Origin: Klebsiella phage fENko-Kae01
DNA length: 64,000 nt
Direction: 5' to 3' (one strand)
Sequence record: OR228459.1
The notes beneath the pieces were generated by a model that had not been told where the DNA came from, made no database searches, and saw only the letters and a program-made list of their open reading frames with translations. The translations under genes and the position numbers were made by a program. Positions 19,354-45,559 of this stretch are shown here, in pieces (position 1 is the first letter of the stretch; every line of letters begins with the position of its first letter).

Positions 19354-19354
19354 G

Positions 19355-28227: not shown

Positions 28228-28237
28228 TGGAGAATCC

Positions 28238-28911: not shown

Positions 28912-28920
28912 GAGATTATT

Positions 28921-29368: not shown

Positions 29369-29371
29369 TAT

Positions 29372-29710
29372 ATGTTCGGAACTACTAGTGATTTTATTGT
29401 TATTATCAGCCTAACATTAATGGTTATGTTATTCCTTGATTATGTCTTCGGTGCTGACAAACTTGAATTTGCCCGGACATTACTTGTAAAGAATCAGGAA
29501 TGGATTTTTGCACTAGGTTGGATTGGTGTTGGAACTATATTCAAATGTATTGGAATCTTCACTGATAGTGAAACACTATATGGTTTAGGAACTTTTTATG
29601 TTTGGATTATTATTGGTGCTTTCGGTATATATTATGGTTCCTTATATGTGGTAAAATTTATTTTAAATCTACGTTCTGCTAATATTGCAAAACGCAAAAA
29701 GCCCCGCTAA
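29372..29710 (+). CDS. multi-pass membrane protein (112 aa)
   Basis: TAAGGAG RBS. Stop lies inside the bidirectional terminator. Confidence 0.55.
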   Translation: MFGTTSDFIVIISLTLMVMLFLDYVFGADKLEFARTLLVKNQEWIFALGWIGVGTIFKCIGIFTDSETLYGLGTFYVWIIIGAFGIYYGSLYVVKFILNLRSANIAKRKKPR

Positions 29711-29722
29711 GGGGCTTTTTTA
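29696..29722. terminator. bidirectional rho-independent terminator
   Basis: aaaaaGCCCCgctaaGGGGCtttttt. Separates the convergent plus-strand block and the minus-strand MIPF array. Confidence 0.7.
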
Positions 29723-30367
29723 TTCAAATGGATATGTTGGTGGAGTTATGGATGATTCTGTATACAACGCAGAATTGCTTATTCTGATTTGGTCATAGTA
29801 AGCATTAGCAGAAGTTTCATACCCACCAATTCGTAATGGTGTGTTATAAACACCCCATCGATCACCATTAAGAATCATTTTCAAAGAACCACTGATATAT
29901 AAACGAACATCGGTTCCGCTCTGTACTAATGCTACATGTGTCCATACATTAAGTGGTATATTACTTGAAATTAGGCTAGTACCTTTCGTTCTACCCTGTA
30001 AGTACAAATTACTTGTATAGATTTTTACACCACCAGTAACACCAGTACCATTACTGATATACCAGTTATTGGTATTTCTACCAACAGCATACATGTAAAA
30101 TTCAATAGTATAATCACCTTCTTGTTTAGATACGTTAAGATCTTTCATTTGATCCACAGCTAAACTGATAAAACCAGAAGTGAATCTAAATGATTTCTCT
30201 TGTTCGGGTAATACTATAGTACTGTCTATAGAAGGAGTACTGTTTAATGTAATAACCCTTCCCGGATTCCAAACATCTTTGAATCCATCTTTAGCTCTCA
30301 TGAGCATACCATATTTTTTATCTGGTGCTGTATTAGCATATGTTAATAATCTTGAAAATGGTATCAT
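29720..30367 (-). CDS. MIPF-family paralog 1: ConA/LamG-like lectin-fold protein (215 aa)
   Basis: N-terminus MIPFSRLLTYAN. Jelly-roll-like motifs (NVWTHVALVQSGTDVRLYISG). AAGGAAAA RBS on the minus strand. Confidence 0.6.
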   Translation of the reverse strand: MIPFSRLLTYANTAPDKKYGMLMRAKDGFKDVWNPGRVITLNSTPSIDSTIVLPEQEKSFRFTSGFISLAVDQMKDLNVSKQEGDYTIEFYMYAVGRNTNNWYISNGTGVTGGVKIYTSNLYLQGRTKGTSLISSNIPLNVWTHVALVQSGTDVRLYISGSLKMILNGDRWGVYNTPLRIGGYETSANAYYDQIRISNSALYTESSITPPTYPFE

Positions 30368-30440
30368 TTTATTTTCCTTAATTTTGCAGACATATATTTA
30401 ATTAGAAAAATCCCCTAACTTTGACAGTACATGGATACAT

Positions 30441-31571
30441 TTAAAAAGGTAAATCCGTCTGTTCAGAAATAATATAACTCAATGGTGTTTGGCATATCGA
30501 ATAATTTTTACCAGCCATACTACTAGGTGGATATCCACTCATCCAAATTTTATTACCTGACCAGAAATAATTAATATACGTTCCACCACTATATGACATA
30601 TTCGTATTATAAGAACTGAAATCTACTTCTTTCCATGATTCAAAATATGGTAAATTATTGCTGGACTGACTATTAATAGGACTATACCCTGTACTAACAA
30701 GTTTATTTGTATCAGAATTGTGTAGATATAATCTACTAGGAGATGGAGATATATTGTCATTATAAAATTTACTCATGTCACCTATATTGAATCCAACATT
30801 AATACTTTTTTGACTTAAACCTGAAACCCCTGTATTTGATGTACCGGTAACATGGATAATATTATCAGTACTTATAACAATTATACCATTATTATAATAA
30901 ATGGTATTAGGTGTGAAAGATATATCTTTAAGTACTTCGGTAAACGTAACTTTATCTCCCGGTTGGTCATTTATTTGCAGGGAGTTATTATTTCCAGCAC
31001 CCCAAATAGTATTATCATTTTTTACAATAAAACATGTGTCTCCGCCAGCATCACCAAAAACACTTTTAACATTTTCAGACATTAATACCCAATCACTAAC
31101 AAATGTTTTAGTTCCATTTCCAATAGAACCATTGCGATTATATCCTCTACCATAAAGTTTACCATCATTTAACAAAACAAAGACAGTGTATCCAGCGATA
31201 ATATTTTTAATATTAGATATATCGAAAGCTGAAAAGTACTGACTTACATCTGTAAATCCCTGCTGGATTGTATTCGCATTATGAAAGCAATATAATGATC
31301 CAGTAGCATACATTTTACCATCAGTCTTATGAGCAAAAGTAACATACCCTGTCCAGAAGTTTACAACATCTTGTGCAGACAAGACAATATCTCCTGTTAT
31401 ATTCAAAGCTGTACTTCCACCCCATAGGTAATCATTATCAACACCATGTGCATATAAATCCCCGTTTTCTAAGAGGATCAGACCACGGGTGTTATATGAC
31501 AAAATTTTTTTAATACTTGGTAATCCGGGTGCTATATTAGCATAATTTAATATACGAGTGAATGGTATCAT
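30441..31571 (-). CDS. MIPF-family paralog 2: RCC1-like beta-propeller repeat protein (376 aa)
   Basis: Track ORF 30441..31595 trimmed to the MIPFTRILNYAN start, with an AAGGAG RBS 6 nt upstream. Repeated G.N..G.LG.G-type blades. Confidence 0.65.
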   Translation of the reverse strand: MIPFTRILNYANIAPGLPSIKKILSYNTRGLILLENGDLYAHGVDNDYLWGGSTALNITGDIVLSAQDVVNFWTGYVTFAHKTDGKMYATGSLYCFHNANTIQQGFTDVSQYFSAFDISNIKNIIAGYTVFVLLNDGKLYGRGYNRNGSIGNGTKTFVSDWVLMSENVKSVFGDAGGDTCFIVKNDNTIWGAGNNNSLQINDQPGDKVTFTEVLKDISFTPNTIYYNNGIIVISTDNIIHVTGTSNTGVSGLSQKSINVGFNIGDMSKFYNDNISPSPSRLYLHNSDTNKLVSTGYSPINSQSSNNLPYFESWKEVDFSSYNTNMSYSGGTYINYFWSGNKIWMSGYPPSSMAGKNYSICQTPLSYIISEQTDLPF

Positions 31572-31582
31572 TTTATTTCTCC

Positions 31583-32761
31583 TTACGTGTTCCACGGTAA
31601 TTTTATTGGTGTGAATTTTGGATACAAAATAGTTGCTTCTAAACCGGGTAAGTACTTACCTTGTCCAGCACCATAAACATTCCCATTAACATCACACAGT
31701 ATTGTTGAATAATTTCCACATGCAGTTATTGTTTTTATTTCTGAACCTTTTACTTGTACATCCCCTCCACCAAAAATAGTTGGTAGGTAATTAACAATAG
31801 TTGCCACAGTAGAACCAGTACCAGATGAATACGAACTCGCATTATTATATCCATTAACCATCAATCTATCATAACCATCAACAATATATGTAAGAACATT
31901 AAATGTAGTGAATGATGATTTTGCAGGTAATGACAATGTATTAGTAACTAATGTTGGTTTTTGAACCGGGGCAGGTGAAGCAGTACTTCCCGGTGTTGCA
32001 GTACTATAATAATTTGTACCCCATGAATATACATTACCATCAATTGTGATACATTTATAGGATAATGCATCGCTTGATAACGATTTACACTTTTGATTAT
32101 TTGGTAACACCAATCTTGTAAATGATAAAAGTGTAACCCCGTTATTGGCAATGCCAGAATTATTATCATTTCCACATCGGTATAGTTCTCCGGTTTTAGT
32201 AAGGAGCCATGTTGCAATATTTCCATTAACATCAAGTACTTCCTCTACTGGCCCACCAGTATGCTGTAACATAGTCCATGTTAATGGTGCGGTACTTAAT
32301 CCAAATGATGGATAATTAGTTGGACTAATTACTTTTACAACCCCAGAACTATCAATTTTATATAATCCATGTCTAGTAGTAAATAACTTATGAATATCAT
32401 TGCCATCTGATAGCATTAGATCAGTGAAATCAGTAAATGTATTTGTATTCGATGCATTTGGTATAACAGACGCAATCCAACCCGTATAAAACCATTTTCC
32501 ATCTACTGTTTTGATTATACATCCCGGAGTCATATCTTCTATCCAAAAGTCTTCTACGTCATCGCGAAGAATATGCCATCCATCTAAAAAATTATTAATG
32601 TCTTGACCATTGCCAAATTCACCATTACTACTTTCACCGAATGCATATAATATATTATTATTATCTAACAGATAAAGTGCTTTTTGCCATCCTGCTATTT
32701 TCTTTACAAATTTGTTTTGTACGGTATTTCCATACGTTAATATCCTTGCGAATGGTATCAT
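31583..32761 (-). CDS. MIPF-family paralog 3: RCC1-like repeat protein (392 aa)
   Basis: N-terminus MIPFARILTYGN. GESSNGEFGNGQ-type repeats. Confidence 0.65.
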   Translation of the reverse strand: MIPFARILTYGNTVQNKFVKKIAGWQKALYLLDNNNILYAFGESSNGEFGNGQDINNFLDGWHILRDDVEDFWIEDMTPGCIIKTVDGKWFYTGWIASVIPNASNTNTFTDFTDLMLSDGNDIHKLFTTRHGLYKIDSSGVVKVISPTNYPSFGLSTAPLTWTMLQHTGGPVEEVLDVNGNIATWLLTKTGELYRCGNDNNSGIANNGVTLLSFTRLVLPNNQKCKSLSSDALSYKCITIDGNVYSWGTNYYSTATPGSTASPAPVQKPTLVTNTLSLPAKSSFTTFNVLTYIVDGYDRLMVNGYNNASSYSSGTGSTVATIVNYLPTIFGGGDVQVKGSEIKTITACGNYSTILCDVNGNVYGAGQGKYLPGLEATILYPKFTPIKLPWNT

Positions 32762-33954
32762 TTTATATCTCCTTGATTTACATTCAATCCATGTTTCATT
32801 GATTCTTTCGTTAAATCTTTTGGGAATTTACCAAATTTGTCTGATATATTAGTATAAGTATCATATGTAATTATTTCTGTTTTAGTATTAAATCTACCAC
32901 ACATATATATTGAACCATCTTTCAAGTATACATAAGTTGCTGAGTTACCTAAATCAAGATACACAATATCATTAGTATTAAATGGAACTTGAACTTTTAC
33001 TGGAGATACTCTAACGGTTCCATCATTTAATCCTCTAAATGAAGTATTTCCGGTAACATACATACCTTCATTTGTGTAATACATAGTTGTATTACAGTTT
33101 GAAAATGAATTATCAGCAAGACCTATAATACTGGTTCTCATAGGCCATGAATTACTTATTATAGTGGTTGACGTTAGATTATTAGTAGAACCATTACCAA
33201 ATACACCATTAAAACCAAATCCTCTTCCATACCACGTTTTATCAACATAAGAAGGAAAAATTATTGCATATTGATGATCCTGTAGTGATTTACCATATAT
33301 CTCATCAGTACTAGCATTTCCAATTAATACTGGATATGAATAAAAAGTACTTTCAGGGGCTGATGAAAATATACTAGCTATATTTTGACCACCACCATGT
33401 ACTTGACCCGATGTATTAATTGTCCACCAGTTTGTACCACTATTACCTATAGCTATAATATTTGTACTTACTAAATTCCAATTTGTATATGGCACTGTAC
33501 TAGAGTTTAAACCCCTTTGTGAACCAATCACTCTGAAAAAATTATTATTATCTATGAAACCAATACTAGGGGAACCTGTATTAAATGAAACTGTATCAAT
33601 AATAATAGAGCCTGAAGAAAAGAAAATATCTTCTTTGAAAGTTGTTTCCATTGTATTGTCATTACTAGTACGATAAACTCTAGAACCCGTATAATAGACT
33701 TTATTATTAGTTTCTTGAAGCATCAAAGAGTTCCCAAATTGATCCATCCAGAAATTTTTTACGTTATTTCTTATAAGTGTCCAATCTTCATGCCATACTT
33801 TTGCTTGACCATCACCAAAAGCACCATTGCCTCTACCATGCAATTCCCCATTACTTAATAAAATCATCCAAGATGCTGTACTGAATTGTATTTTAACAAT
33901 CTTAGAATCTTCCGCTATATTGCCATAATTTAACATTCTTGTGAACGGTATCAT
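32758..33954 (-). CDS. MIPF-family paralog 4: RCC1-like repeat protein (398 aa)
   Basis: N-terminus MIPFTRMLNYGN. ATGA overlap with paralog 3. Confidence 0.65.
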   Translation of the reverse strand: MIPFTRMLNYGNIAEDSKIVKIQFSTASWMILLSNGELHGRGNGAFGDGQAKVWHEDWTLIRNNVKNFWMDQFGNSLMLQETNNKVYYTGSRVYRTSNDNTMETTFKEDIFFSSGSIIIDTVSFNTGSPSIGFIDNNNFFRVIGSQRGLNSSTVPYTNWNLVSTNIIAIGNSGTNWWTINTSGQVHGGGQNIASIFSSAPESTFYSYPVLIGNASTDEIYGKSLQDHQYAIIFPSYVDKTWYGRGFGFNGVFGNGSTNNLTSTTIISNSWPMRTSIIGLADNSFSNCNTTMYYTNEGMYVTGNTSFRGLNDGTVRVSPVKVQVPFNTNDIVYLDLGNSATYVYLKDGSIYMCGRFNTKTEIITYDTYTNISDKFGKFPKDLTKESMKHGLNVNQGDIK

Positions 33955-33964
33955 CCCCTTCTCC

Positions 33965-35131
33965 TTATATTATTCTTGGTTGCATTGGAACTTTATTCCA
34001 TTTGGTAAAATCTTCAGTTGACCCCGGTATCCATCTTGAATTACCCACTGCATATACCGTATTTTCATGCCAATAATACACGTAATAACCACCTTGAACA
34101 ACATGTGTTGGATCGAAGATAATATCTTGAAGAAAACCATTTTGCACTAAGGTTGAATATATTATTGTTGATGTATTACCTATTCCAAATCTACCATAGT
34201 AATCAGAACCAGAACTATATATAGATTCTGAAGTACAAAGATAAATTGCTCCTTCACTGCAAAAACTATTTGTGTACTGAACAAATTTACTGGCTAATTC
34301 AGAATCAATTAATGTATTTTTTGTTAGTGTCGTGTAATAAGAAGATGCAGTAGTCCCATCAGCACATAAACCATTACCACGAAACCCGCTCATATATACA
34401 TCATTGCTTTCTGTAATAATCAAGACATTATTAGCACTTAAAATAATGGTTTTTATTGGCAATGTAAACGGTACTTTATAGAATATAGGTTGCTCACTTG
34501 AAAATCCTAGACCTAAAGTTCCATATAAATTTCTTCCAGTACCGAAAAGTTCACCTGATGTACTAATATAAAATGAGGCATCACTTGATGAACTTAATGA
34601 ACTATAAATTTCTTTCACTCCACTAGCTACACGTTTAAATGATGCTGAAGGTGTAGTACCTAAACCAATATTACCGTACTGATTATTTGATGCATATGTT
34701 CCTTGACCAATAGCATAAAGCTGTTCATCTTGTAATAAAAATAATCCTCTACTTCCAAACATTAATTTGGCTTTGTTTAAATCAAAGTTATTGAAAGTTG
34801 ATGTTATTTCAGTAAATGTATTTAAATATCCAGATGATGCTCCCAATGATGCTCGATAACCAGTAAAAAACACTTTATTATTTTCAGTAATAATTAAAGT
34901 ACAGTCAACACCAACATATATATCTTTTATATTTTCGATTGGACATTTTACCCATGTATTTTTGTTTACTAATGTTCCATCACCTAATTGACCACTTGTA
35001 TTATCACCAGTACCAAATGCTTGACCATCATCAAATAGTACAAAAATAAATCCATAATACGAAACAACTTTTTTAATTTTAGTTTTTGGTAAAATATTAC
35101 CATATGATATAATTCTTGCAAATGGAATCAT
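33965..35131 (-). CDS. MIPF-family paralog 5: RCC1-like repeat protein (388 aa)
   Basis: N-terminus MIPFARIISYGN. GDNTSGQLGDGT, a classic RCC1 blade motif. Confidence 0.65.
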   Translation of the reverse strand: MIPFARIISYGNILPKTKIKKVVSYYGFIFVLFDDGQAFGTGDNTSGQLGDGTLVNKNTWVKCPIENIKDIYVGVDCTLIITENNKVFFTGYRASLGASSGYLNTFTEITSTFNNFDLNKAKLMFGSRGLFLLQDEQLYAIGQGTYASNNQYGNIGLGTTPSASFKRVASGVKEIYSSLSSSSDASFYISTSGELFGTGRNLYGTLGLGFSSEQPIFYKVPFTLPIKTIILSANNVLIITESNDVYMSGFRGNGLCADGTTASSYYTTLTKNTLIDSELASKFVQYTNSFCSEGAIYLCTSESIYSSGSDYYGRFGIGNTSTIIYSTLVQNGFLQDIIFDPTHVVQGGYYVYYWHENTVYAVGNSRWIPGSTEDFTKWNKVPMQPRII

Positions 35132-35170
35132 AATCCCCTCATAATTCTTGTAATTATATTATATTTAATT

Positions 35171-35208
35171 AAAAAAGGTCAGTACTGGTATTGTACTGAC
35201 CTTTTTAT
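35171..35208 (-). terminator. intra-array terminator hairpin (bidirectional) followed by conserved leader
   Basis: aaaaaaGGTCAGTACtggtattGTACTGACCttttt. On the minus strand it is followed by a conserved ~35-nt leader (aattaaatataatataattacaagaattatgagggg) ahead of paralog 5. Confidence 0.55.
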
Positions 35209-36329
35209 TATTTCCAAGGCATTTTTTCATCGGCAAGTCGAGTAAGCCTATTAAAAAATGAAATTCCATTTATTGGTGTATTACCACATACAAACATATC
35301 ATCGTTATTATCAATAACCATTGAAAATAAATTATCACCACCAAATGAAACAATATTAGATACTGTACCGAATATCATTGGTGTTAGTGTAGCTTGTGCT
35401 GATGAAGATGCACCATTACCACATTGTCCATAGCTATTAAATCCACAACGCCATATTTGATTGTTAATCCATATCATCGGTGACATACCCAAACTGTTTG
35501 TTAAAGAACCAATTACTCTTAATGGTACAGAAGGATCAAATTGAGTACTGATCTGTACTGAATTAAGTACTGGATTTGTATTACCAACCGAACCTTGACC
35601 TTGTGTGTTAATTGATGCAGTTCGTATAGAACCATCTTTCATAAAATAATATGTTGTATAAAACGTATTAGCAGTGTACAATACATCATCCAATGTTTTC
35701 GTAAATGTAGGTACTGAGGTTGGTGTAGTACCAGATAACATCATCATTCCTGCATAATAACAACTTCCATCACTTAATATTAAACAGGTTGTATTGAATG
35801 AACAGGACATGTACTGAACGTTTTCGATTGAACTATATGTGAATTTAGTAACACTAGCAGAACTACCAGTACCGAAACACCCAGCACTATTGCTTCCATA
35901 AAAGAACCATTTTCCATTATTCAATAATACTCTAATACCTTCAGCAATGTAAACACTTTTTATATCATCTGGCGATACCCCAAAATCTGAAAAGTACTTC
36001 GTTACATTAACAAAGGATCTTGTATTTTGTGCTATTGGCATACCATATGTACTTCCAGTGTACCACATTATATTATCTTCATCTATAGCCAGTGTTCCAT
36101 GTACACCACCGAAATATCTTTTCACTCTGGTTAATACCTTAGTCCACGATGATAGGTTCGTTGTATCACCAGTTCCTAATTGACCCAAGTTATTCTGTCC
36201 AATTGCATATAGATCACCATTACGGTGTAAATACCATGCTGCACTGTAATTTACCTGAACTCGTTCACCCAATATAGTCGGTGCTTTAACTTCATTGCCA
36301 TAACTTAATATTCTTGTAAATGGTATCAT
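35208..36329 (-). CDS. MIPF-family paralog 6: RCC1-like repeat protein (373 aa)
   Basis: N-terminus MIPFTRILSYGN. GQNNLGQLGTGD. Confidence 0.65.
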   Translation of the reverse strand: MIPFTRILSYGNEVKAPTILGERVQVNYSAAWYLHRNGDLYAIGQNNLGQLGTGDTTNLSSWTKVLTRVKRYFGGVHGTLAIDEDNIMWYTGSTYGMPIAQNTRSFVNVTKYFSDFGVSPDDIKSVYIAEGIRVLLNNGKWFFYGSNSAGCFGTGSSASVTKFTYSSIENVQYMSCSFNTTCLILSDGSCYYAGMMMLSGTTPTSVPTFTKTLDDVLYTANTFYTTYYFMKDGSIRTASINTQGQGSVGNTNPVLNSVQISTQFDPSVPLRVIGSLTNSLGMSPMIWINNQIWRCGFNSYGQCGNGASSSAQATLTPMIFGTVSNIVSFGGDNLFSMVIDNNDDMFVCGNTPINGISFFNRLTRLADEKMPWK

Positions 36330-36351
36330 TATTATTCCTCGATTATTTTAA

Positions 36352-37521
36352 TTACATTGGCAATACCAACGGAAGTACTGAACCAATACCATATGTTGGA
36401 ACATTACTTTGTATTGTTGGTGCTGTATTTTTTGGTGAAGATGTGGCTATATTAGGAAAAGATGAAGATGGATTAAACAATACTATATTACCAGAACCAC
36501 TCATAAGCATCAACCCATCGTATTTCTCATTTTGTGCACATTTCTCGAATGTTCCAATGTCAACTGTAGAATTCACATAGTTTTTACTTCTATGTCCACA
36601 ACCATATATTTCATTATCAACTGTCATGTAATATGATACGCTTCCTGAACTCGTATTAATAAATTTAAAATAGCTACGGAAATTAGCTGGTAGAATTGGT
36701 AATGTTCCTGATACGAATCCATAAAACCCACTATTAGTATTACCATTACCCAACGAACCATATGATCCCCATCCAGTTCCGTAATATGTCCCATCAGATA
36801 AAAAAATTATACAATTGTTATTGCACATTTTAATTTGATTGATTTTTTGAACATCCACACCCGGAAATGATTCAGTAAATGTTAATACATTAGAAACACT
36901 ACTTGCATTACATTGGTTTTGTGTATTACGTCCAGATGATAGTACTGTGCCATCTTCTAAGATAATTCTTGCTGCTCCAGTACCAGACATACATGCTACC
37001 GCATTTGATGAATTAAACAATTTCTTTAACGAAAAAAAACCAACATTGGCTTTCCCTTGACCTGACCAACCTTCTGTATCAGTACCAATACCCCACACCG
37101 AACCATCATTATGAATAAGCATAAGACCATTTCTATCAATATTAATGTATTTTATCTCATTAATATCTATTCCGACAAAACTAGATGTAACGTCAATCCA
37201 TGTATTCGAAACTGTTACAGAACTTTTCAATACGTTGTGACCCGTTAACATAACTTTACCAGTACTTGTAATATATATTGTTTGTGAAAAACCAGTACTA
37301 CATAACCTAACTTCATCAACTTCGGGAACCATAATCCACTCATTAAATGAATTTGTGTTATTTCCAGTACCCAATTGACCATTGGCATTACTACCAGACA
37401 AATATAACTTTTCATTGTAAATCAATGAATACGTTTCACTATATTCTGAAGTACTCAATAAAATTGATTTTGGTATTGGTGGTGTATTTCCATATAACAT
37501 GATTCTAGCAAATGGTATCAT
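36352..37521 (-). CDS. MIPF-family paralog 7: RCC1-like repeat protein (389 aa)
   Basis: Track ORF 36352..37536 trimmed to the MIPFARIMLYGN start, which follows a GGGAGG RBS. GSNANGQLGTGN. Confidence 0.65.
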   Translation of the reverse strand: MIPFARIMLYGNTPPIPKSILLSTSEYSETYSLIYNEKLYLSGSNANGQLGTGNNTNSFNEWIMVPEVDEVRLCSTGFSQTIYITSTGKVMLTGHNVLKSSVTVSNTWIDVTSSFVGIDINEIKYINIDRNGLMLIHNDGSVWGIGTDTEGWSGQGKANVGFFSLKKLFNSSNAVACMSGTGAARIILEDGTVLSSGRNTQNQCNASSVSNVLTFTESFPGVDVQKINQIKMCNNNCIIFLSDGTYYGTGWGSYGSLGNGNTNSGFYGFVSGTLPILPANFRSYFKFINTSSGSVSYYMTVDNEIYGCGHRSKNYVNSTVDIGTFEKCAQNEKYDGLMLMSGSGNIVLFNPSSSFPNIATSSPKNTAPTIQSNVPTYGIGSVLPLVLPM

Positions 37522-38220
37522 ATTTGAACCTCCCACATCTTAACATATTGTATCCTACCTTTGAATAAAACTGGATTAGCATTATTATCTCCAGCAACAT
37601 ATGAGCCAAATAAACTAAAATACTGATTATCTGGTGATAATATTTGATACCAAGGAAATGTTTGTGTTTCATTAAAAAGTTCAGAATGTACAGTAACAGA
37701 AATACCTTTTCTAAACTCCATTTTTATAGTATCCCATGCATTGGGGTTAGACCATGTTGGAAGTATTCGGGCAAAATTATTTCCCCAATCTATGAATACT
37801 TGATTATATGTAGCACTATATTGGTTGAATGCATTAACAAATCCCGATATTCTTCTGCTATTATAATTACCAGTTTCAAATAACGTTTGCCCCCCCAAGT
37901 GGTGAACATTTCATTCTATATTCTATGGCAAATGCATTATACAGACTGAAGTCTAATTTGATTCCTTTTACTGGATTTATAGTTCTAAAATAAACACTAC
38001 TATTTGTACAATCCAATACATTAGACCCTATTTCATCATCATATACCACAGTTCCGGCGATGGGATTAGTTATACCTATTTGTGAACGTTGTAAAAATGC
38101 ATTACCTGCTCTATCAGGAATACCAGTACTACCAATTTTTTGAGTACTGTAATCTACATCAAGTATCATTTTTTCGGGTGCAATATTCCCGTATTTTAAT
38201 ATCATTGAAAATGGTATCAT
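37518..38220 (-). pseudogene. MIPF-family paralog 8: ConA/LamG-like lectin-fold gene split by a frameshift at a G7 (coding-strand) run
   Basis: Two adjacent ORFs in different frames (37876..38220, which begins MIPFSMILKYGN, and 37518..37898). They fuse into one ~238-aa protein if the C7/G7 run at 37890-37896 loses one base. The fused size and fold resemble paralog 1. Confidence 0.55.
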
Positions 38221-38307
38221 AATCCCCTCATAATTCTTGTAATTATATTATATTTAACCAAAAAAAGCCAGTACACCATTTTTAGTACTACACGAAATTT
38301 AAGTTTA

Positions 38308-39492
38308 CTATAATTTCCACGGTAATTGCATTAGAGATTGAAAATATCCATTGAAAATATCATTTGTTAAACAAGTTGGGTTCGTGTTTTTCCCGCAGCC
38401 CAAAATAATATTTTCATCCCTGCATATATATCCATTATAATAATTACATATAATAATATCATGTTCTTTGCAAATTATATCAGGAACTATAGTATATGTA
38501 CCTATATATTGGGGTGATGTTCCTAAACCCAACGCATAATTATAATTATTTCCAGTACTATATAATCTATTATTAATATCAACATACATGGAAACGCCAC
38601 TATGCATTGTATATACTTTACCAAAATAATTATAATCATTACATGAATTCGGTAATTCCACGGTGATCATATTACCTGATGTATTTTGATTCGTATTCGT
38701 TGTATTTCCATCACCGAATGCCCCGGCTGAATTCGTACCAATACAATATGCTGTTGACTTAGTATACGCAATCGTATTGTTAGTAGACATCCTAACCTGA
38801 AGTATAGGTTCACTTACAGTACTAAACATTCGATGAAAACGAACAATATTCTCATTATTAATGCCACCCTCAGTACTGGTTTTTATACAATATGATGCAT
38901 TCCTACCAGCACCCCACACTGTCCCGTCTTTTTTAATATATACACTATTTTGTGAAGTAATAGAACAATCTTCAACATCAGTATCTATCAATGTCAATGG
39001 GAAATATCCAGTACTACCAACACCTAATTCACCATAACGATTAAGTCCAATACCATAAAGTTCACCATTGTTTAATAATACAAATGTATTATTCTCAGGA
39101 ACTATTTTTTTAATATCTGATATATTAATAGAACTAAACAAGTTAGAGATATCAGTAAATGTCGTATACCCTGATGCTGTACCACTGTTATTCTGAATTG
39201 CTCGATCGCCTGATAAAAATATTTTATCATCATGCGAAATATATATAGTACTTCCAATCCCATTAGTACATAACTTAATATCCGATTCTGGTATTTTAAA
39301 TAAAGATCTAGGTCTATCTGATTTATGACCCAACCCCAATTGACCATATGCGTTATACCCACCAACATAGGCATCGCCGGTGCTTAATAAAATACTATAA
39401 GAAACATTAGAACTAAAACTTAAATTCATTTGTTTGATATATGGTATTTCTCTTATATTACCGTATGTCAATATCCTAGCAAATGGTATCAT
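38308..39492 (-). CDS. MIPF-family paralog 9: RCC1-like repeat protein (394 aa)
   Basis: N-terminus MIPFARILTYGN. GYNAYGQLGLGH. Preceded on the minus strand by the conserved leader. Confidence 0.65.
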   Translation of the reverse strand: MIPFARILTYGNIREIPYIKQMNLSFSSNVSYSILLSTGDAYVGGYNAYGQLGLGHKSDRPRSLFKIPESDIKLCTNGIGSTIYISHDDKIFLSGDRAIQNNSGTASGYTTFTDISNLFSSINISDIKKIVPENNTFVLLNNGELYGIGLNRYGELGVGSTGYFPLTLIDTDVEDCSITSQNSVYIKKDGTVWGAGRNASYCIKTSTEGGINNENIVRFHRMFSTVSEPILQVRMSTNNTIAYTKSTAYCIGTNSAGAFGDGNTTNTNQNTSGNMITVELPNSCNDYNYFGKVYTMHSGVSMYVDINNRLYSTGNNYNYALGLGTSPQYIGTYTIVPDIICKEHDIIICNYYNGYICRDENIILGCGKNTNPTCLTNDIFNGYFQSLMQLPWKL

Positions 39493-39529
39493 ACATTCTC
39501 CTTATTTGTACAATTATATTATATTTAAT

Positions 39530-39566
39530 TAAAAATGACAGTACTTATGTAGTACTGTCATTTTTC
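39530..39566 (-). terminator. intra-array terminator hairpin
   Basis: aaaaaTGACAGTACTtatgtAGTACTGTCAttttt. Perfect 10-bp stem with T-tracts on both strands. Confidence 0.6.
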
Positions 39567-39569
39567 TTA

Positions 39570-40373
39570 TTATGTAGTTGGGCCTACATTACTTGTGGGA
39601 AATCTACGACCACCTCCCCAAATAATACGCACACCACCCAATCCTTCATCAGTACTTGTATTACCAGCACCACGATATATGGTTGTACCCGGAACCGCAC
39701 TACCTGAACTACCACGATAATGTGCAGCAGAACCACTTCCAGATTCACCCATACCAAATAAACCAACTGCACCACCTGAAGCAGCTATACCGCCCCCTCC
39801 GCCAGCACCACCAGCACCAGAACTGCCAGATGAACTACTTGCACCATTACCACCATTACCTTCATAGCCACCAGCACCACCTGAGCCGCCTCTTTCATAT
39901 CGATAAGTACCAGAAGTCGGCCCACTACCACCTCTACCACCATCGCCGCCGCCATCGTTTATTTGACTGGCATTCTTTCCACCAACACCTCCTGACCCTC
40001 CGGCACCACTAGACATTGTAGTACCATAACTGCCCATTTTTCCACCACCAGCAATGCAAGCATTTGAGTTATTTTGTAATACATAAGAATTTCCACCATC
40101 AGAATTGGCTGTATAACCATTTACACCAACTGTAACTGATAGTACTTCACCGGGAGTTACCACTACATCATTCCTATAACTTAAACCACCGCCACCGCCA
40201 CCACCACCAGTACTTCCAGTGCCAACCCTACCACCACCGCCAACACATAATATACATATAGATTCAACATCATCTGGTACTATAAACTCAAATGTTCCAG
40301 ATTGAACCCAGACCATTTCCCCTTTTGGTGGTAATTTATTTCCGTATGTTAGCATTTTTGTAAATGGTATCAC
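39570..40373 (-). CDS. MIPF-family paralog 10: glycine-rich protein (267 aa, GTG start)
   Basis: N-terminus (V/M)IPFTKMLTYGN followed by long GGxGG/GSG tracts. The opposite-strand ORFs 39584..39775 and 39656..40012 (His/Gln-rich) are mirror artefacts. Confidence 0.55.
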   Translation of the reverse strand: MIPFTKMLTYGNKLPPKGEMVWVQSGTFEFIVPDDVESICILCVGGGGRVGTGSTGGGGGGGGLSYRNDVVVTPGEVLSVTVGVNGYTANSDGGNSYVLQNNSNACIAGGGKMGSYGTTMSSGAGGSGGVGGKNASQINDGGGDGGRGGSGPTSGTYRYERGGSGGAGGYEGNGGNGASSSSGSSGAGGAGGGGGIAASGGAVGLFGMGESGSGSAAHYRGSSGSAVPGTTIYRGAGNTSTDEGLGGVRIIWGGGRRFPTSNVGPTT

Positions 40374-40383
40374 GATTGTCTCC

Positions 40384-41517
40384 TTAATTAATTCTTATTT
40401 TAGTAAAAATATTATTTTCTGAACCATCAGATTTTTTTCCCGGTAAAACACTAATACTTCCAACTCCCCAAATATCATTTCCATCAAATATTAAAGAATA
40501 AAAAGTTCCACCCAAAATCTGTACTTTTTTGTTATCTTGTACTGTTGTAAATTTAGGAATTTCTTTAAAAATAGAGGATGCCTGTGGTAAGCCACTATAT
40601 TCAACTAGACCCGTTGCATAAAATGTACCGTTAGTACCTAAAAATATATTTCTGTTTGGTGTACCCTTTAACTTTCCTCCAATAACCATTTGGGATGGCA
40701 TGTTTATTTTGGTTGACCAAGATTTAAGCTGAGTATTTGAATTTACACCGTCACCTAATATCCCATTAATTTGCCAACCAGAACCTGCTATTGTCGTTGG
40801 TGTCCAATATGATAATGTACTAGCACGTGTTGCCATAAAGGATGATGTGCCACCATTAAGTATTATCCCCCACGTATACTTATTTTCTGAATTACCAGAA
40901 CCAAATTGACCATAAGGCTGTTGTCCCGCTCCATACAAATATACGGAAGTGGGTGAAATTCCACGAGCTATCATAGAATAGTCTCCAACATATAATTCTT
41001 GATGGTAAGTAGTACCAACTCGCGTAAATGAACTTATCCGATTTGTAGATCCTAGACCACACGCCCCATTACTATTCCAACCTCTTGAATATAATTGATT
41101 GTCGATATCAATATATCCCATAGTGTATAAACCAATATCTAATTCTTTCACCGAATCATAAGATGGCATAGTATTAGTTATATCATCACCTTCTATTGGA
41201 GATAATCCACCAGTAGTATTCTTGGTTCCTAATACATCATAGTTTCCATTAAAAATCCATTTTCCATCCTTAGTATATATTAATGTACTCTTAGAACCAC
41301 ACCAAACATCTTCTGCATTTCTATCCAGTACTACAAACTCGTAGTACTGATATGTTGCTGTGCAATCCTTTAACTGATTAGAATTGTTATAACCAATACC
41401 ATATAGTAATCCACTTTCCATTAATACCACATAATGTGTATCACCACATGATATTTTCTTTATATTACTTGGTACAACTACATTACCATATCCCAATATC
41501 CTCGCAAATGGTATCAT
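40384..41517 (-). CDS. MIPF-family paralog 11: RCC1-like repeat protein (377 aa)
   Basis: Track ORF 40384..41535 trimmed to the MIPFARILGYGN start. Confidence 0.65.
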   Translation of the reverse strand: MIPFARILGYGNVVVPSNIKKISCGDTHYVVLMESGLLYGIGYNNSNQLKDCTATYQYYEFVVLDRNAEDVWCGSKSTLIYTKDGKWIFNGNYDVLGTKNTTGGLSPIEGDDITNTMPSYDSVKELDIGLYTMGYIDIDNQLYSRGWNSNGACGLGSTNRISSFTRVGTTYHQELYVGDYSMIARGISPTSVYLYGAGQQPYGQFGSGNSENKYTWGIILNGGTSSFMATRASTLSYWTPTTIAGSGWQINGILGDGVNSNTQLKSWSTKINMPSQMVIGGKLKGTPNRNIFLGTNGTFYATGLVEYSGLPQASSIFKEIPKFTTVQDNKKVQILGGTFYSLIFDGNDIWGVGSISVLPGKKSDGSENNIFTKIRIN

Positions 41518-41559
41518 ATATCCCCCATAATTCATGTAATTATACTATATTTAATTAAA

Positions 41560-41590
41560 AAAGGCTAGTACGCACTTGTACTAGCCATCT
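41560..41590 (-). terminator. intra-array terminator hairpin (minus-strand T-tract)
   Basis: GGCTAGTACgcactTGTACTAGCC followed on the minus strand by TTTTTTAATTAA, then the conserved leader. Confidence 0.5.
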
Positions 41591-41591
41591 C

Positions 41592-42737
41592 TCAATTAAT
41601 AGATTTAATATCAACTTCTGCACCCAATGACAATTTAGTAAAGGTAGTTGTATCTTGACTTAAGGAAGGAAAAGAAGAACCACTATACCAAATTGTATTT
41701 CTAGTTATTATCATAGTATTAGTTGAATTAGCACATATTCCAATTATATCATTAAGTACTAACTCATCTGGCAAATTAATAATTGTCTTATTTTGGGGCG
41801 TAACCTTATTACCTAAACCCAATTGTCCACTTGTATTATTTCCAGTACAATATAAATCATTATTCACACTAAAAAATGTACCATAACGTGTTAATATAGA
41901 ATATGGATGATTGAAAAACTTATTAGCACCAACCATACTATACAAACCCGTAATACCAATTTGGGCTGTACTTCCATTACCCATACAATAATAAGTACCT
42001 AATCCCGCTCCATATATCCAACTTTGATTAATAGACATAACCGCCGATGGCATTAAACTCCATGAAATGTTAGAAGTTCTAGGAGCAGAAGCAACTTGTA
42101 CTTCATTCGGCGTAGGTGATGTTCCAAGCATCGATGGTGCATTACCAAAACCACAGATAACATCATATGCACTGAACCATTTTCGATAAGCCGTTATGCC
42201 ATTATAAAGCTGTACATCTTTAACCCTAGAAACCATTAAAGTAGGTACTGATAACATTCCATTTAAGGCAACCTTATTACTTAAACTATAAGTACTATTC
42301 CTACCAACCATATATAAATCACCATATGTGCGATCAGTCGAATTCGGTATTAAATAAGCCATGTTGTTTAAAGTAGCTGTAATGTTATAAGCATCACTAG
42401 GAATAGTAAAGGGAAGTTTGGTAAAACTATATACATTACTATTAAGCCCTAAACATGTGCGGTTGCCAGATATATAGTACTGACCATCATTTCCTTGAAT
42501 GATCACACTCATATCAGTAGCACATACCACTTTTTTAATATTACCTGCAATCAATCTCCATTCAGATAATGGTGCAGAATCACCAGTACCCAATTGACCC
42601 TGACTATTATCCCCTAATGCAAATAAATTACCAATAGAATCTATATATAATGCAAAATAATTCAATCCACAGAATTGAACTATTTTTGCATCCGGTAATG
42701 TGTTCCCATAATCCAATATCCTAGCAAACGGTATCAT
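41592..42737 (-). CDS. MIPF-family paralog 12: RCC1-like repeat protein (381 aa)
   Basis: N-terminus MIPFARILDYGN. GDNSQGQLGTGD. Confidence 0.65.
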   Translation of the reverse strand: MIPFARILDYGNTLPDAKIVQFCGLNYFALYIDSIGNLFALGDNSQGQLGTGDSAPLSEWRLIAGNIKKVVCATDMSVIIQGNDGQYYISGNRTCLGLNSNVYSFTKLPFTIPSDAYNITATLNNMAYLIPNSTDRTYGDLYMVGRNSTYSLSNKVALNGMLSVPTLMVSRVKDVQLYNGITAYRKWFSAYDVICGFGNAPSMLGTSPTPNEVQVASAPRTSNISWSLMPSAVMSINQSWIYGAGLGTYYCMGNGSTAQIGITGLYSMVGANKFFNHPYSILTRYGTFFSVNNDLYCTGNNTSGQLGLGNKVTPQNKTIINLPDELVLNDIIGICANSTNTMIITRNTIWYSGSSFPSLSQDTTTFTKLSLGAEVDIKSIN

Positions 42738-43933
42738 ATATTATCCTCTCTTAAATTAAAATCTGTTATTAATGTAAAATTCTCAGATAATGGTGTACTT
42801 AATGGCGTAAATCCAACACCAGCACTTGTTGTTAACCCCGAACCCTTTGCATATAGTAACGGGGCCATATTCAATGCACAAAGAGCAAACATCCTCGTAT
42901 TTGTATAAGCCCTATATGTGTTCCCATTGCCCTGTACTGTATATCTTGGCGTGAATGTGAGAAGACGATCTCCACCACCTCCATCCATATAACCCGCAAA
43001 ATATAGTACACCATTAGTATCAGATAGGATATTCGTCCAATACGTCTGGATGGATGTCCCAAATAGTGATAATAAATTACCCGGCTTAAATGCTAATTGT
43101 GCAGTATATAACCGAACATTCGCATCTACACTAATATTACCTATCCCCCACGCACCAGCATAATTTCTTCCTGAACAATAATATTTTCCGTCCGTCCTAA
43201 AAAGCATAAAATGTGTTTGACTTATACGAAATGCATTATATTCATAATCTACCTCAGATGTAGCCTCAGAAAATAATTGTGTCCATGTAGTATATACAGT
43301 ACTTTGAGATGTAGTCTGCATCTGTTGATAAGTGTTATCTCCAGTACCCCAAAATGTTCCATCCAAATCCTGATATACTCCATTAATATTCGTTATCCAA
43401 CAATCCTGTACTGACGATTTTAATAGTACTGGCGTGAAACTAGGAGTTTTATTAGCACTACCAAAGTAACCATAATCGTTTTTTCCATGTGCATATAATG
43501 AACCATCATTCAACAAAATATAAACTGTGTTGTAATTCATTGTTATTTTCTTAATCTTTAATATATCAAAATACGTAGAATAAAATGAAGTCTTATCAAC
43601 CCATGTGGCTGTATTACTAGTACCATCATATATCGTCTGACGACCTGTATAAAATAATTTATCATCATTCGATAATACAAACGTTCCATATGTACTACCC
43701 CATGCAGTCTTTACATCCCTCTTAACTAAATGCATCTCACCATAGTAATTTACACCAACTGGAAAACCCAAAACATATCCATAATTCTTATCACAGGTTC
43801 CCCATAACTCTCCATTATTCAAATGCATCCACATCGTCGCGGCGGTATTATCCGAATCCAAAAAGAAGTCAATCACTTTTGCGGGTGCTGCTACCTTATT
43901 CCCATACTCTAATATCCTAGTAAATGGTATCAT
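42734..43933 (-). CDS. MIPF-family paralog 13: beta-propeller-like protein (399 aa)
   Basis: N-terminus MIPFTRILEYGN. ATGA overlap with paralog 12. First gene of the array, reading from the 43.9-45.6 kb control region. Confidence 0.6.
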   Translation of the reverse strand: MIPFTRILEYGNKVAAPAKVIDFFLDSDNTAATMWMHLNNGELWGTCDKNYGYVLGFPVGVNYYGEMHLVKRDVKTAWGSTYGTFVLSNDDKLFYTGRQTIYDGTSNTATWVDKTSFYSTYFDILKIKKITMNYNTVYILLNDGSLYAHGKNDYGYFGSANKTPSFTPVLLKSSVQDCWITNINGVYQDLDGTFWGTGDNTYQQMQTTSQSTVYTTWTQLFSEATSEVDYEYNAFRISQTHFMLFRTDGKYYCSGRNYAGAWGIGNISVDANVRLYTAQLAFKPGNLLSLFGTSIQTYWTNILSDTNGVLYFAGYMDGGGGDRLLTFTPRYTVQGNGNTYRAYTNTRMFALCALNMAPLLYAKGSGLTTSAGVGFTPLSTPLSENFTLITDFNLREDNI

Positions 43934-44747
43934 ATTATCCCCCTATAATTATCATTATATCATATTTACCCATATATATACCCTTTTTAATATATTAGAA
44001 AACTCTATAGTACTACCATATATACACCATATAAACGCATAGAAAGCCATAAGAGAAGACTTCTCCAATATTATACACAGGTGTAGCTCCTGTAGATAGC
44101 GGCTCTTAGACGCTTATCGAAAGGATTCAACACCTGTAAAAATACCCAATTGTTAATATGTACAGTACTTTTACTTTTAAAATTATTCAGGAAATAGTTA
44201 CACATTGAACTATATTAGTAAGTACTAATGGAAGCTACTATTCAGTACTTACCCCCTTCCGCTATATCTTCTCTGTATAAGAAGATAGAAAAGTACTAAA
44301 AAGTACTACACACCTTTTTTACAAAGTACCATTCAACCTTTTTCCCGAAAGTACTCCATCCTAAATCCCAATCCTAGAAATTTTGGAGTACCCTCCAACC
44401 TCCAGCTAAAATCTCAAAAGTACTCCATCCTAAATCTGAATCAACAAAATGCTGGACAACCATTCAGTACTAAATTATAATGTTATTAGTGGGAATCTAC
44501 CCTCGTATATATGATGCTGTATATAATATCAGTACTGAACGAATTAACAGTATTAGTAGATATACCAGTACTGAAAATATTTTGAAAATAGTTGTTGACA
44601 CCGTGGGAATATTTTGACATAATACACGGCATGGAAGATGTGGTGAGTTATCATCCTGACTTCTGTCTTGTTTATGAAAATAGATTGAAACAGTACTAAC
44701 ACGTTTATAACAACGTAACAGTACTGATATGAAGTGAAAAGTATTAC

Positions 44748-45515: not shown

Positions 45516-45559
45516 AGCTACATCGAAACGAGATACACAAACACATTAAGGAAAACGAT

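Follow-up and report, generated by a model that had tools for sequence, protein, structure and literature searches.

Gene content and layout of the array

The analysed window (the whole 64-kb stretch of DNA) comes from a Munch/7t3-like jumbo phage. At positions 29720–43933 its minus strand carries 13 consecutive co-oriented genes, designated W01 to W13 by position, whose products begin with a common 12-residue peptide (hereafter, the tag). The open reading frame listing, the translations and a six-frame scan bear out the preliminary description in this respect. In all 13 genes the tag follows the pattern M/V-IPF-x-[RKM]-[ILM]-[ILM]-x-Y-[GA]-N. A six-frame search of the whole window with the regular expression IPF-x(3-5)-Y-[GA]-N returned exactly 13 matches, each at the start of an array gene and none elsewhere. 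Two of the reading frames are open upstream to a GTG codon; according to the annotation of phage Munch, the true start is the motif methionine. The genes are as tightly packed as had been claimed, with three ATGA overlaps and spacers of 10–87 nt. The paralogs are an old set, with 25–35% identity to each other in BLAST comparisons.

The array comprises ten RCC1-type seven-blade propellers, one LamG jelly-roll, one TNF-like/polyglycine domain and one split jelly-roll-like gene. The propellers are W02 (30441–31571, 376 aa, tag MIPFTRILNYAN; Pfam WD40_RLD and RCC1_2), W03 (31583–32761, 392 aa, MIPFARILTYGN), W04 (32758–33954, 398 aa, MIPFTRMLNYGN), W05 (33965–35131, 388 aa, MIPFARIISYGN), W06 (35208–36329, 373 aa, MIPFTRILSYGN), W07 (36352–37521, 389 aa, MIPFARIMLYGN), W09 (38308–39492, 394 aa, MIPFARILTYGN), W11 (40384–41517, 377 aa, MIPFARILGYGN), W12 (41592–42737, 381 aa, MIPFARILDYGN) and W13 (42734–43933, 399 aa, MIPFTRILEYGN), the last of these being the first gene of the array. 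Four of them have near-identical counterparts in phage Munch: W02 (gene 535, 100% identity), W03 (536, 99.7%), W06 (541, 98%) and W07 (542, 100%). RCC1-like repeats were found in all ten with the Pfam models PF25390, PF00415 and PF13540, from an E-value of 5e-39 for W05 to the lowest support for W04 (WD40_RLD, E 5.3e-5), whose kinship to the other paralogs is seen by BLAST. W13 additionally gives weak matches to PHROG families annotated as tail proteins. The AlphaFold2 model of W05 is a confident propeller (pLDDT 84, pTM 0.85) with UVR8, RPGR and RCC1 as the top Foldseek matches (TM-score about 0.73). The propeller fold proposed earlier is supported.

Two ConA/LamG-like jelly-rolls had also been proposed, one of which is supported by Pfam. 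W01 (29720–30367, 215 aa, MIPFSRLLTYAN), the last gene of the array, passes the Pfam cut-off for Laminin_G_3 (E 5.3e-9; 36.8 bits against 27.6). It is the array member best conserved across genera: its orthologs GAP32_530 and CBB_548 are 41–47% identical to it and both carry the tag, and CBB_548 was found in CBB virions. The second candidate, W08 (37518–38220, MIPFSMILKYGN), is a split gene. Alignment to the intact Munch gene 540 shows that it is broken into 37876–38220 and 37518–37898 by a +1 shift at a run of seven G (37893–37899). The intact version has no Pfam match and matches the LamG group only over part of the profile (hhalign 92%, columns 1–105). It belongs to a jelly-roll-like class annotated as virion structural protein (phrog_6011, E 1e-36), and the orthologs GAP32_002, GAP32_531, CBB_549 and CBB_553 are virion proteins.

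The remaining gene, W10 (39570–40373, 267 aa, GTG start, tag (V)IPFTKMLTYGN), had been regarded as a glycine-rich low-complexity protein. It proved to encode a folded TNF-like/polyglycine domain of the phage fibre-tip type (Pfam Gly_rich_2, 28.1 bits against a cut-off of 24.3; AlphaFold2 pLDDT 87). The top Foldseek matches are the cyanophage Pam3 fibre gp24 (7ypx_A, E 9e-6, good as an E-value but with a low TM-score of 0.36), the Bxb1 tail tip and the ALK glycine-rich domain; among the matches in BFVD are phage proteins named "tail fiber repeat" and "baseplate component". In the W05 and W10 models, residues 1–10 have pLDDT values of 52–54 versus 84–87 for the domains behind them. The tag is drawn as a helix in W05 (residues 2–11, pLDDT about 54) and as a coil in W10, both with low confidence; in these predictions it looks like a free appendage.

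The preliminary description considered the family undescribed. The array has in fact been published as tandem "DNA condensation/RCC1-like" genes in phages Munch, 121Q, PBECO4 and phAPEC6 (PMC8273493, PMC5259590, PMC7247149). No mention of the shared N-terminal tag was found in the literature searched, within which the tag and the reinterpretation of the array given below appear to be new. The published annotation would make these proteins regulators that condense or organise phage DNA; the fold is truly RCC1-like, and the annotation recurs in GenBank records and in papers up to 2026. However, the name was carried over from the eukaryotic fold only, and the annotating papers cite no evidence of DNA binding in phages. 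The same tag is found on LamG, Kelch and Gly-rich proteins with no link to DNA, and CBB possesses the tag family without any RCC1 member. Moreover, the array paralogs are weakly acidic to neutral (pI 5.3–7.5), with few charged residues and 35–40% N/S/T/G, a composition unlike that of basic DNA binders. We regard DNA condensation as extremely improbable.

Expression signals and rearrangements

Motifs resembling promoters, [G/T]TAAATAT, lie about 30 nt ahead of start codons in the array. On the minus strand they were located before W13 (43958–43969, late type, GTAAATATGATA), W11 (41543–41554, TTAAATATAGTA), W09 (39517–39528, TTAAATATAATA), W08 (38246–38257, TTAAATATAATA) and W05 (35157–35168, TTAAATATAATA), with a variant before W01 (30390–30401, TTAAATATATGT). 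The type of motif found before W13 also precedes a virion structural gene at 5760–6902, and the late (tail and baseplate) genes of Munch have ATAAATA at the same distance. The array shares its strand with the tail and baseplate genes, and its predicted expression signals are late-like. Strong terminator hairpins, also on the minus strand, divide it into transcription units: an intrinsic terminator with a U run after W12 (41563–41586; RNA fold −16 kcal/mol, z −4.9) and hairpins after W10 (39531–39565; −18.8 kcal/mol, z −7.4) and W06 (35172–35206; −19 kcal/mol, z −7.8). Every relative examined possesses the array, which has promoter-like and terminator signals.

Array content varies between close relatives. 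Five isolates at least 98.5% identical in DNA have 17, 16, 16, 13 and about 12–13 array genes. Comparison with Munch revealed four junctions at which megablast blocks end. The first (35094–35131) corresponds to the loss or gain of Munch 539–540, where two colinear blocks share the first 38 nt of W05. The second (37486–37522) covers the tag-coding 5′ end of W07, the third (38209–38274) covers the 5′ end of W08 with its ribosome-binding site and promoter, and the fourth (42703–42748) covers the tag-coding 5′ end of W12, where Munch 547–549 are absent from the window. All four fall inside 37–66-nt 5′ tag-coding segments. Some copies are frameshifted (W08 here, and Munch 541 and 543 as they occur in 7t3 and SE_PL), which indicates that individual members are dispensable.

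Conservation and distribution of the tag

The peptide had been described as better conserved at the protein level than at the DNA level. Within the window this holds only in part: amino acid identity over codons 2–12 is 0.74 and nucleotide identity 0.75. Identity drops to 0.55 at third positions, and where two genes encode the same residue they use different codons in 40% of pairs, with Gly encoded by all four codons and Arg by AGA, AGG and CGT. The first 12 nt (four codons) of the genes are nearly invariant as DNA which, together with the equal nucleotide and amino acid identities, indicates that gene conversion contributes to the conservation. Immediately behind the tag, at residues 13–24, identity between the paralogs falls to 0.15.

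The near-invariant first codons, the equal identities and the position of all four junctions would also suit a 5′ segment kept mainly as nucleic acid, whether as a substrate for recombination or gene conversion or as a translation-initiation context, the peptide having no function of its own. Nevertheless, it is other genera that argue more strongly for selection acting on the peptide. There the tag DNA diverges (for example, ATA Ile versus Leu codons), and P3, F4, R6, Y10, G11 and N12 stay nearly invariant across 74–117 proteins. Positions 5 and 9 are free to vary, a pattern typical of constraint acting on the protein, and the 12-mer is retained in paralogs that are only 25–35% identical elsewhere. 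Conservation mainly as nucleic acid is, in our estimation, very unlikely.

The family consensus is M-[IL]-P-F-x-R-[IM]-[LVI]-x-Y-G-N, and a short linker that often contains Pro comes after it. Nine phage genomes contain 74 unique tag proteins, and the addition of metagenomes raises the number to 117. These proteins span more than eight C-terminal classes unrelated by BLAST, all in RaK2-like jumbo phages, so that the modular design proposed earlier, a short common N-terminal address with varied binding modules, is real and extends far beyond the window. A search of 1.84 billion representative proteins with a 30-position tag profile gave 51 matches at E ≤ 1e-3, 49 of which begin at residue 1 (or at residues 5–13, where an upstream start had been assigned), the remaining two being false positives. 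The tag is rare and confined to protein N-termini. The contigs matched in DNA-pattern scans of IMG/VR are exclusively 348–378 kb long, and metagenome matches lie on contigs of about 355–366 kb or on short fragments with the same array spacing. No Pfam or NCBIfam model was found that covers the 12-mer, so it is not a commonly annotated tail-fibre N-terminal domain. Speaking against an anchoring role, 12 residues fall, to our knowledge, well short of every documented anchor domain of a tail fibre or tailspike. Outside the clade (in Vequintavirinae, a contig with a gene for an RNA polymerase beta-like subunit and other phage contigs) homologs of these LamG-like and Gly-rich domains carry other short N-terminal peptides (M.EMLL.GG, MLE.LLLG and MSG.LQAV..NQRSF). 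The tag follows the phage lineage, not the domain, and is independent of the fold.

Virion association and proposed role

Mass spectrometry of purified virions, an analysis that the preliminary description had called for, exists for the relatives phAPEC6, CBB and GAP32. It counts 18 tag proteins as virion components (eight, seven and three, respectively), without separating the outside of the particle from the inside. All eight "DNA condensation" proteins detected in phAPEC6 begin with MLPF[AG]RM.KYGN. In CBB, all nine products of genes 536, 537 and 548–554 carry the tag and seven were detected, with 9.5–50.7% coverage. The tag is likewise present in all three annotated virion proteins GAP32 001, 002 and 531. 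The presence of tag proteins in virions of the relatives indicates that the peptide most likely serves as a shared tag by which interchangeable binding modules are installed on the particle.

The peptide might instead be a handle, used in folding or oligomerisation or recognised by a dedicated chaperone or assembly factor, or else a signal for regulation or degradation, rather than the part that contacts the virion. Fibre proteins often depend on chaperones, as Pam3 gp24 does on gp25; a short amphipathic segment at the N-terminus could be the recognition site of such a factor, and the structural module of Munch holds a gene for an ATP-dependent Clp-like protease. However, no candidate chaperone gene travels with the array, whose neighbours encode small membrane proteins without a recognisable domain; monomeric propellers and jelly-rolls normally fold by themselves, and a handle would leave the tracking of phage lineage by the tag unexplained. 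We consider this quite unlikely.

The capsid-targeting sequence of phage T4 consists of about ten N-terminal residues common to otherwise unrelated internal proteins encoded at a plastic locus. The tag has the same format and could direct the proteins into the prohead, where they would end as internal or inner-body components, possibly ejected with the DNA. T4-like structural genes are present in the array-bearing phages (PMC8273493); the authors of the phAPEC6 study proposed the RCC1-like proteins for the unassigned inner body of that phage, and an internal location fits the mass spectrometry equally well. However, there is no conserved T4-type cleavage motif (L/I-x-E) in or after the tag, the residues following YGN being variable and often including Pro, and the array proteins are not basic. 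As payloads the tag carries lectin, propeller and fibre-tip binding modules, with no enzymes or inhibitors among them. The best solved match of W10, Pam3 gp24, is an external tail fibre whose N-terminal part docks to the baseplate and whose TNF-like and Gly-rich domains bind the receptor, and the PHROG families matched by related LamG-like domains bear the annotation baseplate wedge subunit or virion structural protein. Capsid targeting is accordingly judged unlikely.

On balance, we find it somewhat probable that the peptide is a virion-incorporation tag for interchangeable, probably external, ligand-binding modules that recombine at the tag segment. The 13 genes would represent one family of late-expressed accessory virion proteins limited to RaK2-like jumbo phages. 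The tag is short and amphipathic and could adopt either a two-turn helix or a donor beta-strand; it would mediate incorporation by binding a single type of acceptor site on the virion. The swappable folds behind it would be propellers (RCC1 and Kelch), several LamG-like jelly-rolls and the TNF-like/polyglycine fibre-tip domain. The modules would most likely be displayed outside the virion as auxiliary adhesins binding the host surface, giving a mosaic, multi-specific virion surface. The tag-coding 5′ segment and the repeated terminator–promoter spacer may double as recombination homology, by which cassettes would be gained, lost and moved between near-identical phages.

The tag-bearing array and its payload domains

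The ORF listing of the window gives 13 genes in succession on the minus strand at 29720–43933, designated W01–W13 by rising coordinate. The translation of every one of them starts with M/V-IPF-x-[RKM]-[ILM]-[ILM]-x-Y-[GA]-N, a 12-residue peptide referred to here as the tag. A six-frame scan of the full 64-kb window found exactly 13 matches to this motif, each at the start of an array gene, which confirms the preliminary description of 13 co-oriented genes with one near-invariant N-terminal peptide. Amino-acid identity among the paralogs is 0.74 within codons 2–12 and 0.15 for residues 13–24, and paralogs are 25–35% identical to each other outside the first 12 residues. The sign change of the GC skew in the window coincides exactly with the array, which is what transcription in the direction opposite to the neighbours should produce. 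Gene W08 (37518–38220) consists of two ORFs and, when aligned with the intact gene 540 of Salmonella phage Munch, has one additional base in a G7 run (37893–37899); a sequencing error, a pseudogene and a slippage-prone tract are all possible. Copies of Munch genes 541 and 543 in phages 7t3 and SE_PL are also truncated.

The array directly adjoins, and is convergent with, a plus-strand block (28184–29710, with 27460–28227) in which a P-loop NTPase gene stands before four tandem paralogous genes for small multi-pass membrane proteins of 105–123 aa, none with a Pfam match. The synteny of the block is kept in GAP32 (522–527, annotated 3 TM), CBB (539–545) and Munch (528–533). In the ~2.1 kb upstream of the array (43934–46098), the longest ORF is ≤108 aa, and in 7t3 this region has tiny annotated ORFs only. 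Upstream of the array, the genome end of Munch as defined by PhageTerm is 331 bp away, and the 22-kb terminal repeat of CBB starts 460 bp upstream of CBB_554; thus, the array adjoins the terminal-repeat boundary in both phages.

RCC1-like repeats, i.e., blades of ~50 residues with a G-x-N-x-x-G-Q-L-G signature recognised by family profiles, were found behind the tag in ten genes (PF00415, PF13540 and PF25390, E-values from 5e-5 to 5e-39). Nine of the ten exceed the threshold for PF00415 and/or PF13540, and all ten score below the whole-domain cut-off of 150 bits for PF25390. The weakest member, W04, matches PF25390 solely (E = 5.3e-5). W05, the single RCC1-like paralog modelled with AF2, is a confident seven-blade propeller (pLDDT 84, pTM 0.85), with UVR8, RPGR and RCC1 as the best Foldseek matches (E-values from 1e-16 to 1e-22, TM 0.65–0.74). 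The Pfam matches and this model bear out the earlier claim of ten RCC1-like propeller proteins.

Two further proteins had been described as ConA/LamG-like, and this was retained for one of them. W01 (29720–30367) passes Laminin_G_3 (PF13385; 36.8 bits, cut-off 27.6), whereas neither the W08 halves nor the intact Munch 540 have a Pfam match, PF13385 included. An hhalign comparison of W08-type proteins with the W01 group gave a 92% probability over columns 1–105 only, partly via the shared tag; a jelly-roll fold is plausible for W08. The remaining protein, W10 (39570–40373), had been described as glycine-rich and of low complexity. The former is correct (Gly_rich_2, PF21722; 28.1 bits, cut-off 24.3), while the latter was abandoned, as the AF2 model of W10 is a folded domain (pLDDT 87).

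Foldseek matches of W10 comprise the cyanophage Pam3 tail fibre gp24 (7ypx_A, E = 9e-6) and Bxb1 tail-tip chains (E = 9e-5), with TM of only 0.32–0.36, and also the ALK/LTK glycine-rich domain. The viral model library yielded many phage ‘glycine-rich domain’ proteins, some of which are annotated as tail fibre or baseplate. In Pam3 gp24, which its authors related to the S16 gp38 adhesin, an N-terminal helical part docks on the baseplate and a TNF-like and glycine-rich part recognises the receptor (PMC9608196). W10 has no N-terminal helical bundle of this trimerising, baseplate-docking kind; the tag and ~5 residues precede its domain. No phage entry for these proteins emerged when the PDB was searched, by sequence and by profile, with W05 and with alignments of the LamG-A, LamG-B and Gly-rich groups, and NCBIfam has no family for any payload class. 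The paralogs have a pI of 5.3–7.5 (8.9 for W01), few charged residues and 35–40% N/S/T/G, a composition more in line with modules for surface binding than with proteins that bind DNA.

Distribution of the tag and its carriers in virions

The tag is also present in more distant RaK2-like jumbo phages. In 121Q, its equivalent is MLPF-x-RM-x-KYGN, found also on the Gly-rich gene 243 inside the 121Q array. All four minus-strand genes 530, 531, 001 and 002 of GAP32 carry the tag (the true start of 531 spans the arbitrary record ends), and so do nine of the nine CBB genes 536, 537 and 548–554. CBB has no RCC1 gene, and its tag proteins are LamG proteins, Kelch propellers and unclassified proteins of ~220 aa. 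Just upstream of 19668–20465 in the CBB record, a remnant mini-ORF (MLPFPQLVVL and a stop) precedes CBB_554 and looks like a decayed tag from an earlier cassette event. A metagenome scan found the tag on ~355–366 kb contigs and on shorter fragments of equal array spacing, and the matches to degenerate DNA patterns in IMG/VR were confined to 348–378 kb contigs. There was no Klebsiella jumbo phage among the tblastn matches.

In total, 74 unique tag proteins were collected from nine genomes, or 117 with metagenomes added. In the 74-protein set, P3, F4, Y10, G11 and N12 are near-invariant, part of this invariance being built in by the search pattern used; R6 occurs in 64 of the 74, and positions 5 and 9 are free. 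With the first 20 residues masked, the payloads fall into more than eight BLAST-unrelated classes, labelled by Pfam as RCC1, Kelch, several LamG-like groups and Gly_rich_2, with some classes unlabelled. The 13 N-termini were also made into a profile of 30 positions, which gave 51 hits at E ≤ 1e-3 among 1.84 billion representative proteins. Two of these were false positives, and the other 49 were N-terminal, in proteins of 214–231 aa or 360–413 aa or in short fragments. Hence, the motif is rare, clade-specific and strictly N-terminal.

The AF2 models predict a helix for residues 2–11 of W05 (pLDDT ~54) and a coil for the first ten residues of W10 (pLDDT 52). A role of the tag as part of the fold, such as a propeller closure strand, was ruled out by this low model confidence and by the presence of the same tag on more than eight unrelated folds. 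A signal peptide or a lipoprotein signal was ruled out as well, since the tag sequence has neither a hydrophobic core nor a lipobox.

Mass spectrometry (MS) of virions, proposed in the preliminary description, is available for relatives and shows tag proteins in particles. Eight of these proteins were detected in phAPEC6 virions (PMC7247149), and all eight (gp003, 005, 006, 007, 009, 010, 549 and 551) start with MLPF[AG]RM.KYGN. The CBB virion proteome includes seven of the nine tag proteins (536, 537, 548, 549, 551, 552 and 553) with a coverage of 9.5–50.7%. Three of the four GAP32 tag proteins (001, 002 and 531) are annotated as virion structural, and gp001 is listed as a structural protein in the CBB paper (PMC5259590). 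This amounts to 18 tag-bearing proteins of at least five fold classes in purified particles of phAPEC6, CBB and GAP32. The reading best supported for the peptide is that it tags interchangeable binding modules for incorporation into the virion and is specific to this clade.

Short N-terminal peptides on unrelated proteins of one phage are found in the array as in T4, where the capsid-targeting sequence of IPI, IPII, IPIII and Alt, a peptide of ~10 residues at the extreme N-terminus of otherwise unrelated proteins, determines incorporation into the particle. The plastic, recombining locus in a T4-related myovirus is a further likeness. By analogy, the tag might alternatively send its carriers into the capsid, and the virion MS of relatives, which does not resolve the location of the proteins, agrees with this as well. 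However, the tag has no sequence similarity to the T4 peptide, and its payloads are non-basic proteins with binding folds. There is no L/I-x-E prohead-protease site at the tag end and no conserved Glu in or after the tag, with positions 13–20 variable, although this site is that of T4 and may not be that of the present clade. An external adhesin role is favoured in view of W10's kinship with fibre-tip domains, of the lectin or propeller character of the other payloads, of their composition and of the absence of T4-type cleavage motifs.

Modular receptor-binding proteins, such as S16/T2-type gp38 on gp37, Pam3 gp24 and the multiple tailspikes of CBA120 and RaK2/K64-1, similarly combine a conserved N-terminal attachment part with an exchangeable C-terminal binding domain, with several modules per phage. 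W10 and Pam3 gp24 have a TNF-like/polyglycine receptor-binding architecture in common. Nevertheless, known anchors measure tens to >100 residues, are either folded domains or helical bundles and belong to usually trimeric proteins, whereas the common part in the array is 12 residues long and is borne by propellers and jelly-rolls that appear to be monomeric. Short terminal peptides also bring diverse cargo to one shell or tube in encapsulins (cargo-loading peptides) and in extracellular contractile injection systems (N-terminal payload signals). Peptide position or sequence differs in these systems, and their cargo is enzymatic and internal; the analogy would be one of principle only.

A more speculative scheme, which we consider possible but rather doubtful, takes the tag as a universal 12-residue ‘plug’. 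Up to 17 monomeric modules (propellers, lectin-like jelly-rolls and fibre-tip domains) would be mounted on one repeated acceptor, making each particle a combinatorial adhesin mosaic; the repertoire would be reshuffled via recombination in the plug-coding sequence, and other lineages would have their own plugs (MLE.LLLG, etc.) for the same domains. One candidate acceptor would be the many unassigned hair-like fibres or capsid/tail decoration sites seen in phAPEC6, 121Q and CBB. A search for the acceptor among the largest Munch tail and baseplate proteins found no informative Pfam domain. Munch gp262 (3342 aa, baseplate module, 20710–30738 of the Munch record) has no Pfam match, and its sequence, being free of internal repeats, shows no repeated docking site. 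An ‘ATP-dependent Clp protease’ gene is located at 18403–20673 within the Munch structural module. If incorporation by the tag is correct, the tag proteins would offer a specific candidate for the decoration or fibre densities left unassigned in phAPEC6, 121Q and CBB. A very short portable peptide might then suffice for attaching foreign proteins to, or packing them inside, the particle of a jumbo phage, and would be of use in phage display and host-range engineering.

Array turnover and predicted promoters

The array DNA is 98.5–98.7% identical to that of Salmonella jumbo phages Munch, 7t3, PHA46 and SE_PL (~340–350 kb), and Munch genes 534–550 are 98–100% identical to the genes of the window. 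The number of tag genes in these five near-identical isolates is 17 in Munch, 16 each in 7t3 and SE_PL, 13 in the window and ~12–13 in PHA46. Compared to Munch, genes 539 and 547–549 are absent from the window, and the copy of Munch 540 is relocated upstream of W07 as a divergent allele (88–91% identical). All four block boundaries relative to Munch fall inside segments of 37–66 nt that the blocks on either side have in common, namely the tag-coding 5′ ends, in some cases extended by the ribosome-binding site and promoter located upstream. Given this location of the junctions, the tag-coding sequence doubles as the recombination substrate for the gain, loss and relocation of cassettes; through it, a large accessory binding repertoire would turn over among near-identical phages. 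Gene conversion adds to the conservation of the tag within a genome and does not account for its cross-genus invariance together with the free positions 5 and 9.

Late-type promoters were sought as the T4-like TATAAATA and as ATAAATA, reported to be the late motif in CBB and GAP32 (PMC5259590). A near-identical element, TTAATTAAATATAATATAAT, is present in five array spacers, with a variant at W01, and [G/T]TAAATAT, one base off ATAAATA, is located ~30 nt upstream of array start codons. In three of the five spacers, a strong hairpin with a U run (z from −4.9 to −7.8) is directly followed by the promoter-like element. The tail-fibre and baseplate genes of Munch, oriented as the array, have ATAAATA at a similar distance from the start codon. 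In the window, a lone virion gene at 5760–6902 on the minus strand (phrog_10468 ‘virion structural protein’, E = 6.5e-109) is preceded by GTAAATATTGATATAA, as at W13, with the same GTAAATAT-type motif. This gene stands among plus-strand small genes, and the middle part of its product is Ig-like-looking. The array elements are probably variant late promoters delimiting five or six transcription units. A scan for sigma-70 promoters gave no enrichment over shuffled sequence.

Published arrays and short peptides in other lineages

The preliminary description recognised neither the family nor the motif from a described phage system. The family is in fact described: the tandem ‘RCC1-like / DNA condensation protein’ arrays published for Munch, 121Q, PBECO4 and phAPEC6 are the same genes as those of the window. 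The CBB paper lists RCC1-like genes present in multiple copies in 121Q and PBECO4 (PMC5259590), the phAPEC6 paper speculated on an inner-body and DNA-ordering role (PMC7247149), and the non-RCC1 members were termed ‘three unrelated hypothetical proteins’ (PMC8273493). The published accounts thus take the non-RCC1 members as unrelated insertions, use a chromatin-derived name, still found in a 2026 Asteriusvirus paper (PMC13070987), and do not mention the shared peptide. Full-text literature searches for the motif strings found no mention of it either. Hence, the array is already known, and the tag is new as far as the searched literature goes. Literature searches on phage RCC1 propellers, capsid and cryo-EM found nothing relevant.

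In GenBank, the array genes are named ‘DNA condensation protein’ or ‘regulator of chromosome condensation’. The paralogs, with their pI range and few charges, have no sequence evidence of the functions of RCC1 proper (Ran, nucleosome or DNA binding), and the ‘DNA condensation’ name is supported by the fold alone. If the tag reading holds, a testable structural role would replace a misleading annotation still spreading through dozens of jumbo-phage genomes.

Homologs of the payload domains in other lineages begin with different short peptides. The rV5-like phage GAP31 has three LamG-like homologs, 094, 106 and 108 (2069–2719, 3275–3886 and 8004–8657 of its record), which align over the full length save for the first ~12 residues. 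Their N-termini are MFEAMLTAG, MQEMLLGG and MEEMLLTGG, and 108 is a virion protein. Gly-rich homologs in other phage contigs begin with MLESMLMG, MLETLLLG, MIELLLAS, MIEAMLMAGG or MSGALQAVYQNQRSF. A second and a third peptide class, M.E.[LM]L..G and MSG.LQAV..NQRSF, are thus found on LamG-like and Gly-rich domains (collected proteins P0060, P0062, P0063, P0076, P0089, P0092 and P0103). A second array based on an ‘MLE..L’ tag was ruled out for the surroundings of P0060, on a contig of 273 kb, where a single gene is present. Lineage-dependent N-termini on the same payload domains are what would be expected of a peptide that has to match a partner specific to its lineage, and the alternative peptides may be analogous address tags. 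Their carriers are Vequintavirinae, the 273-kb contig, which encodes an RNA polymerase beta-like subunit, and other phage contigs.
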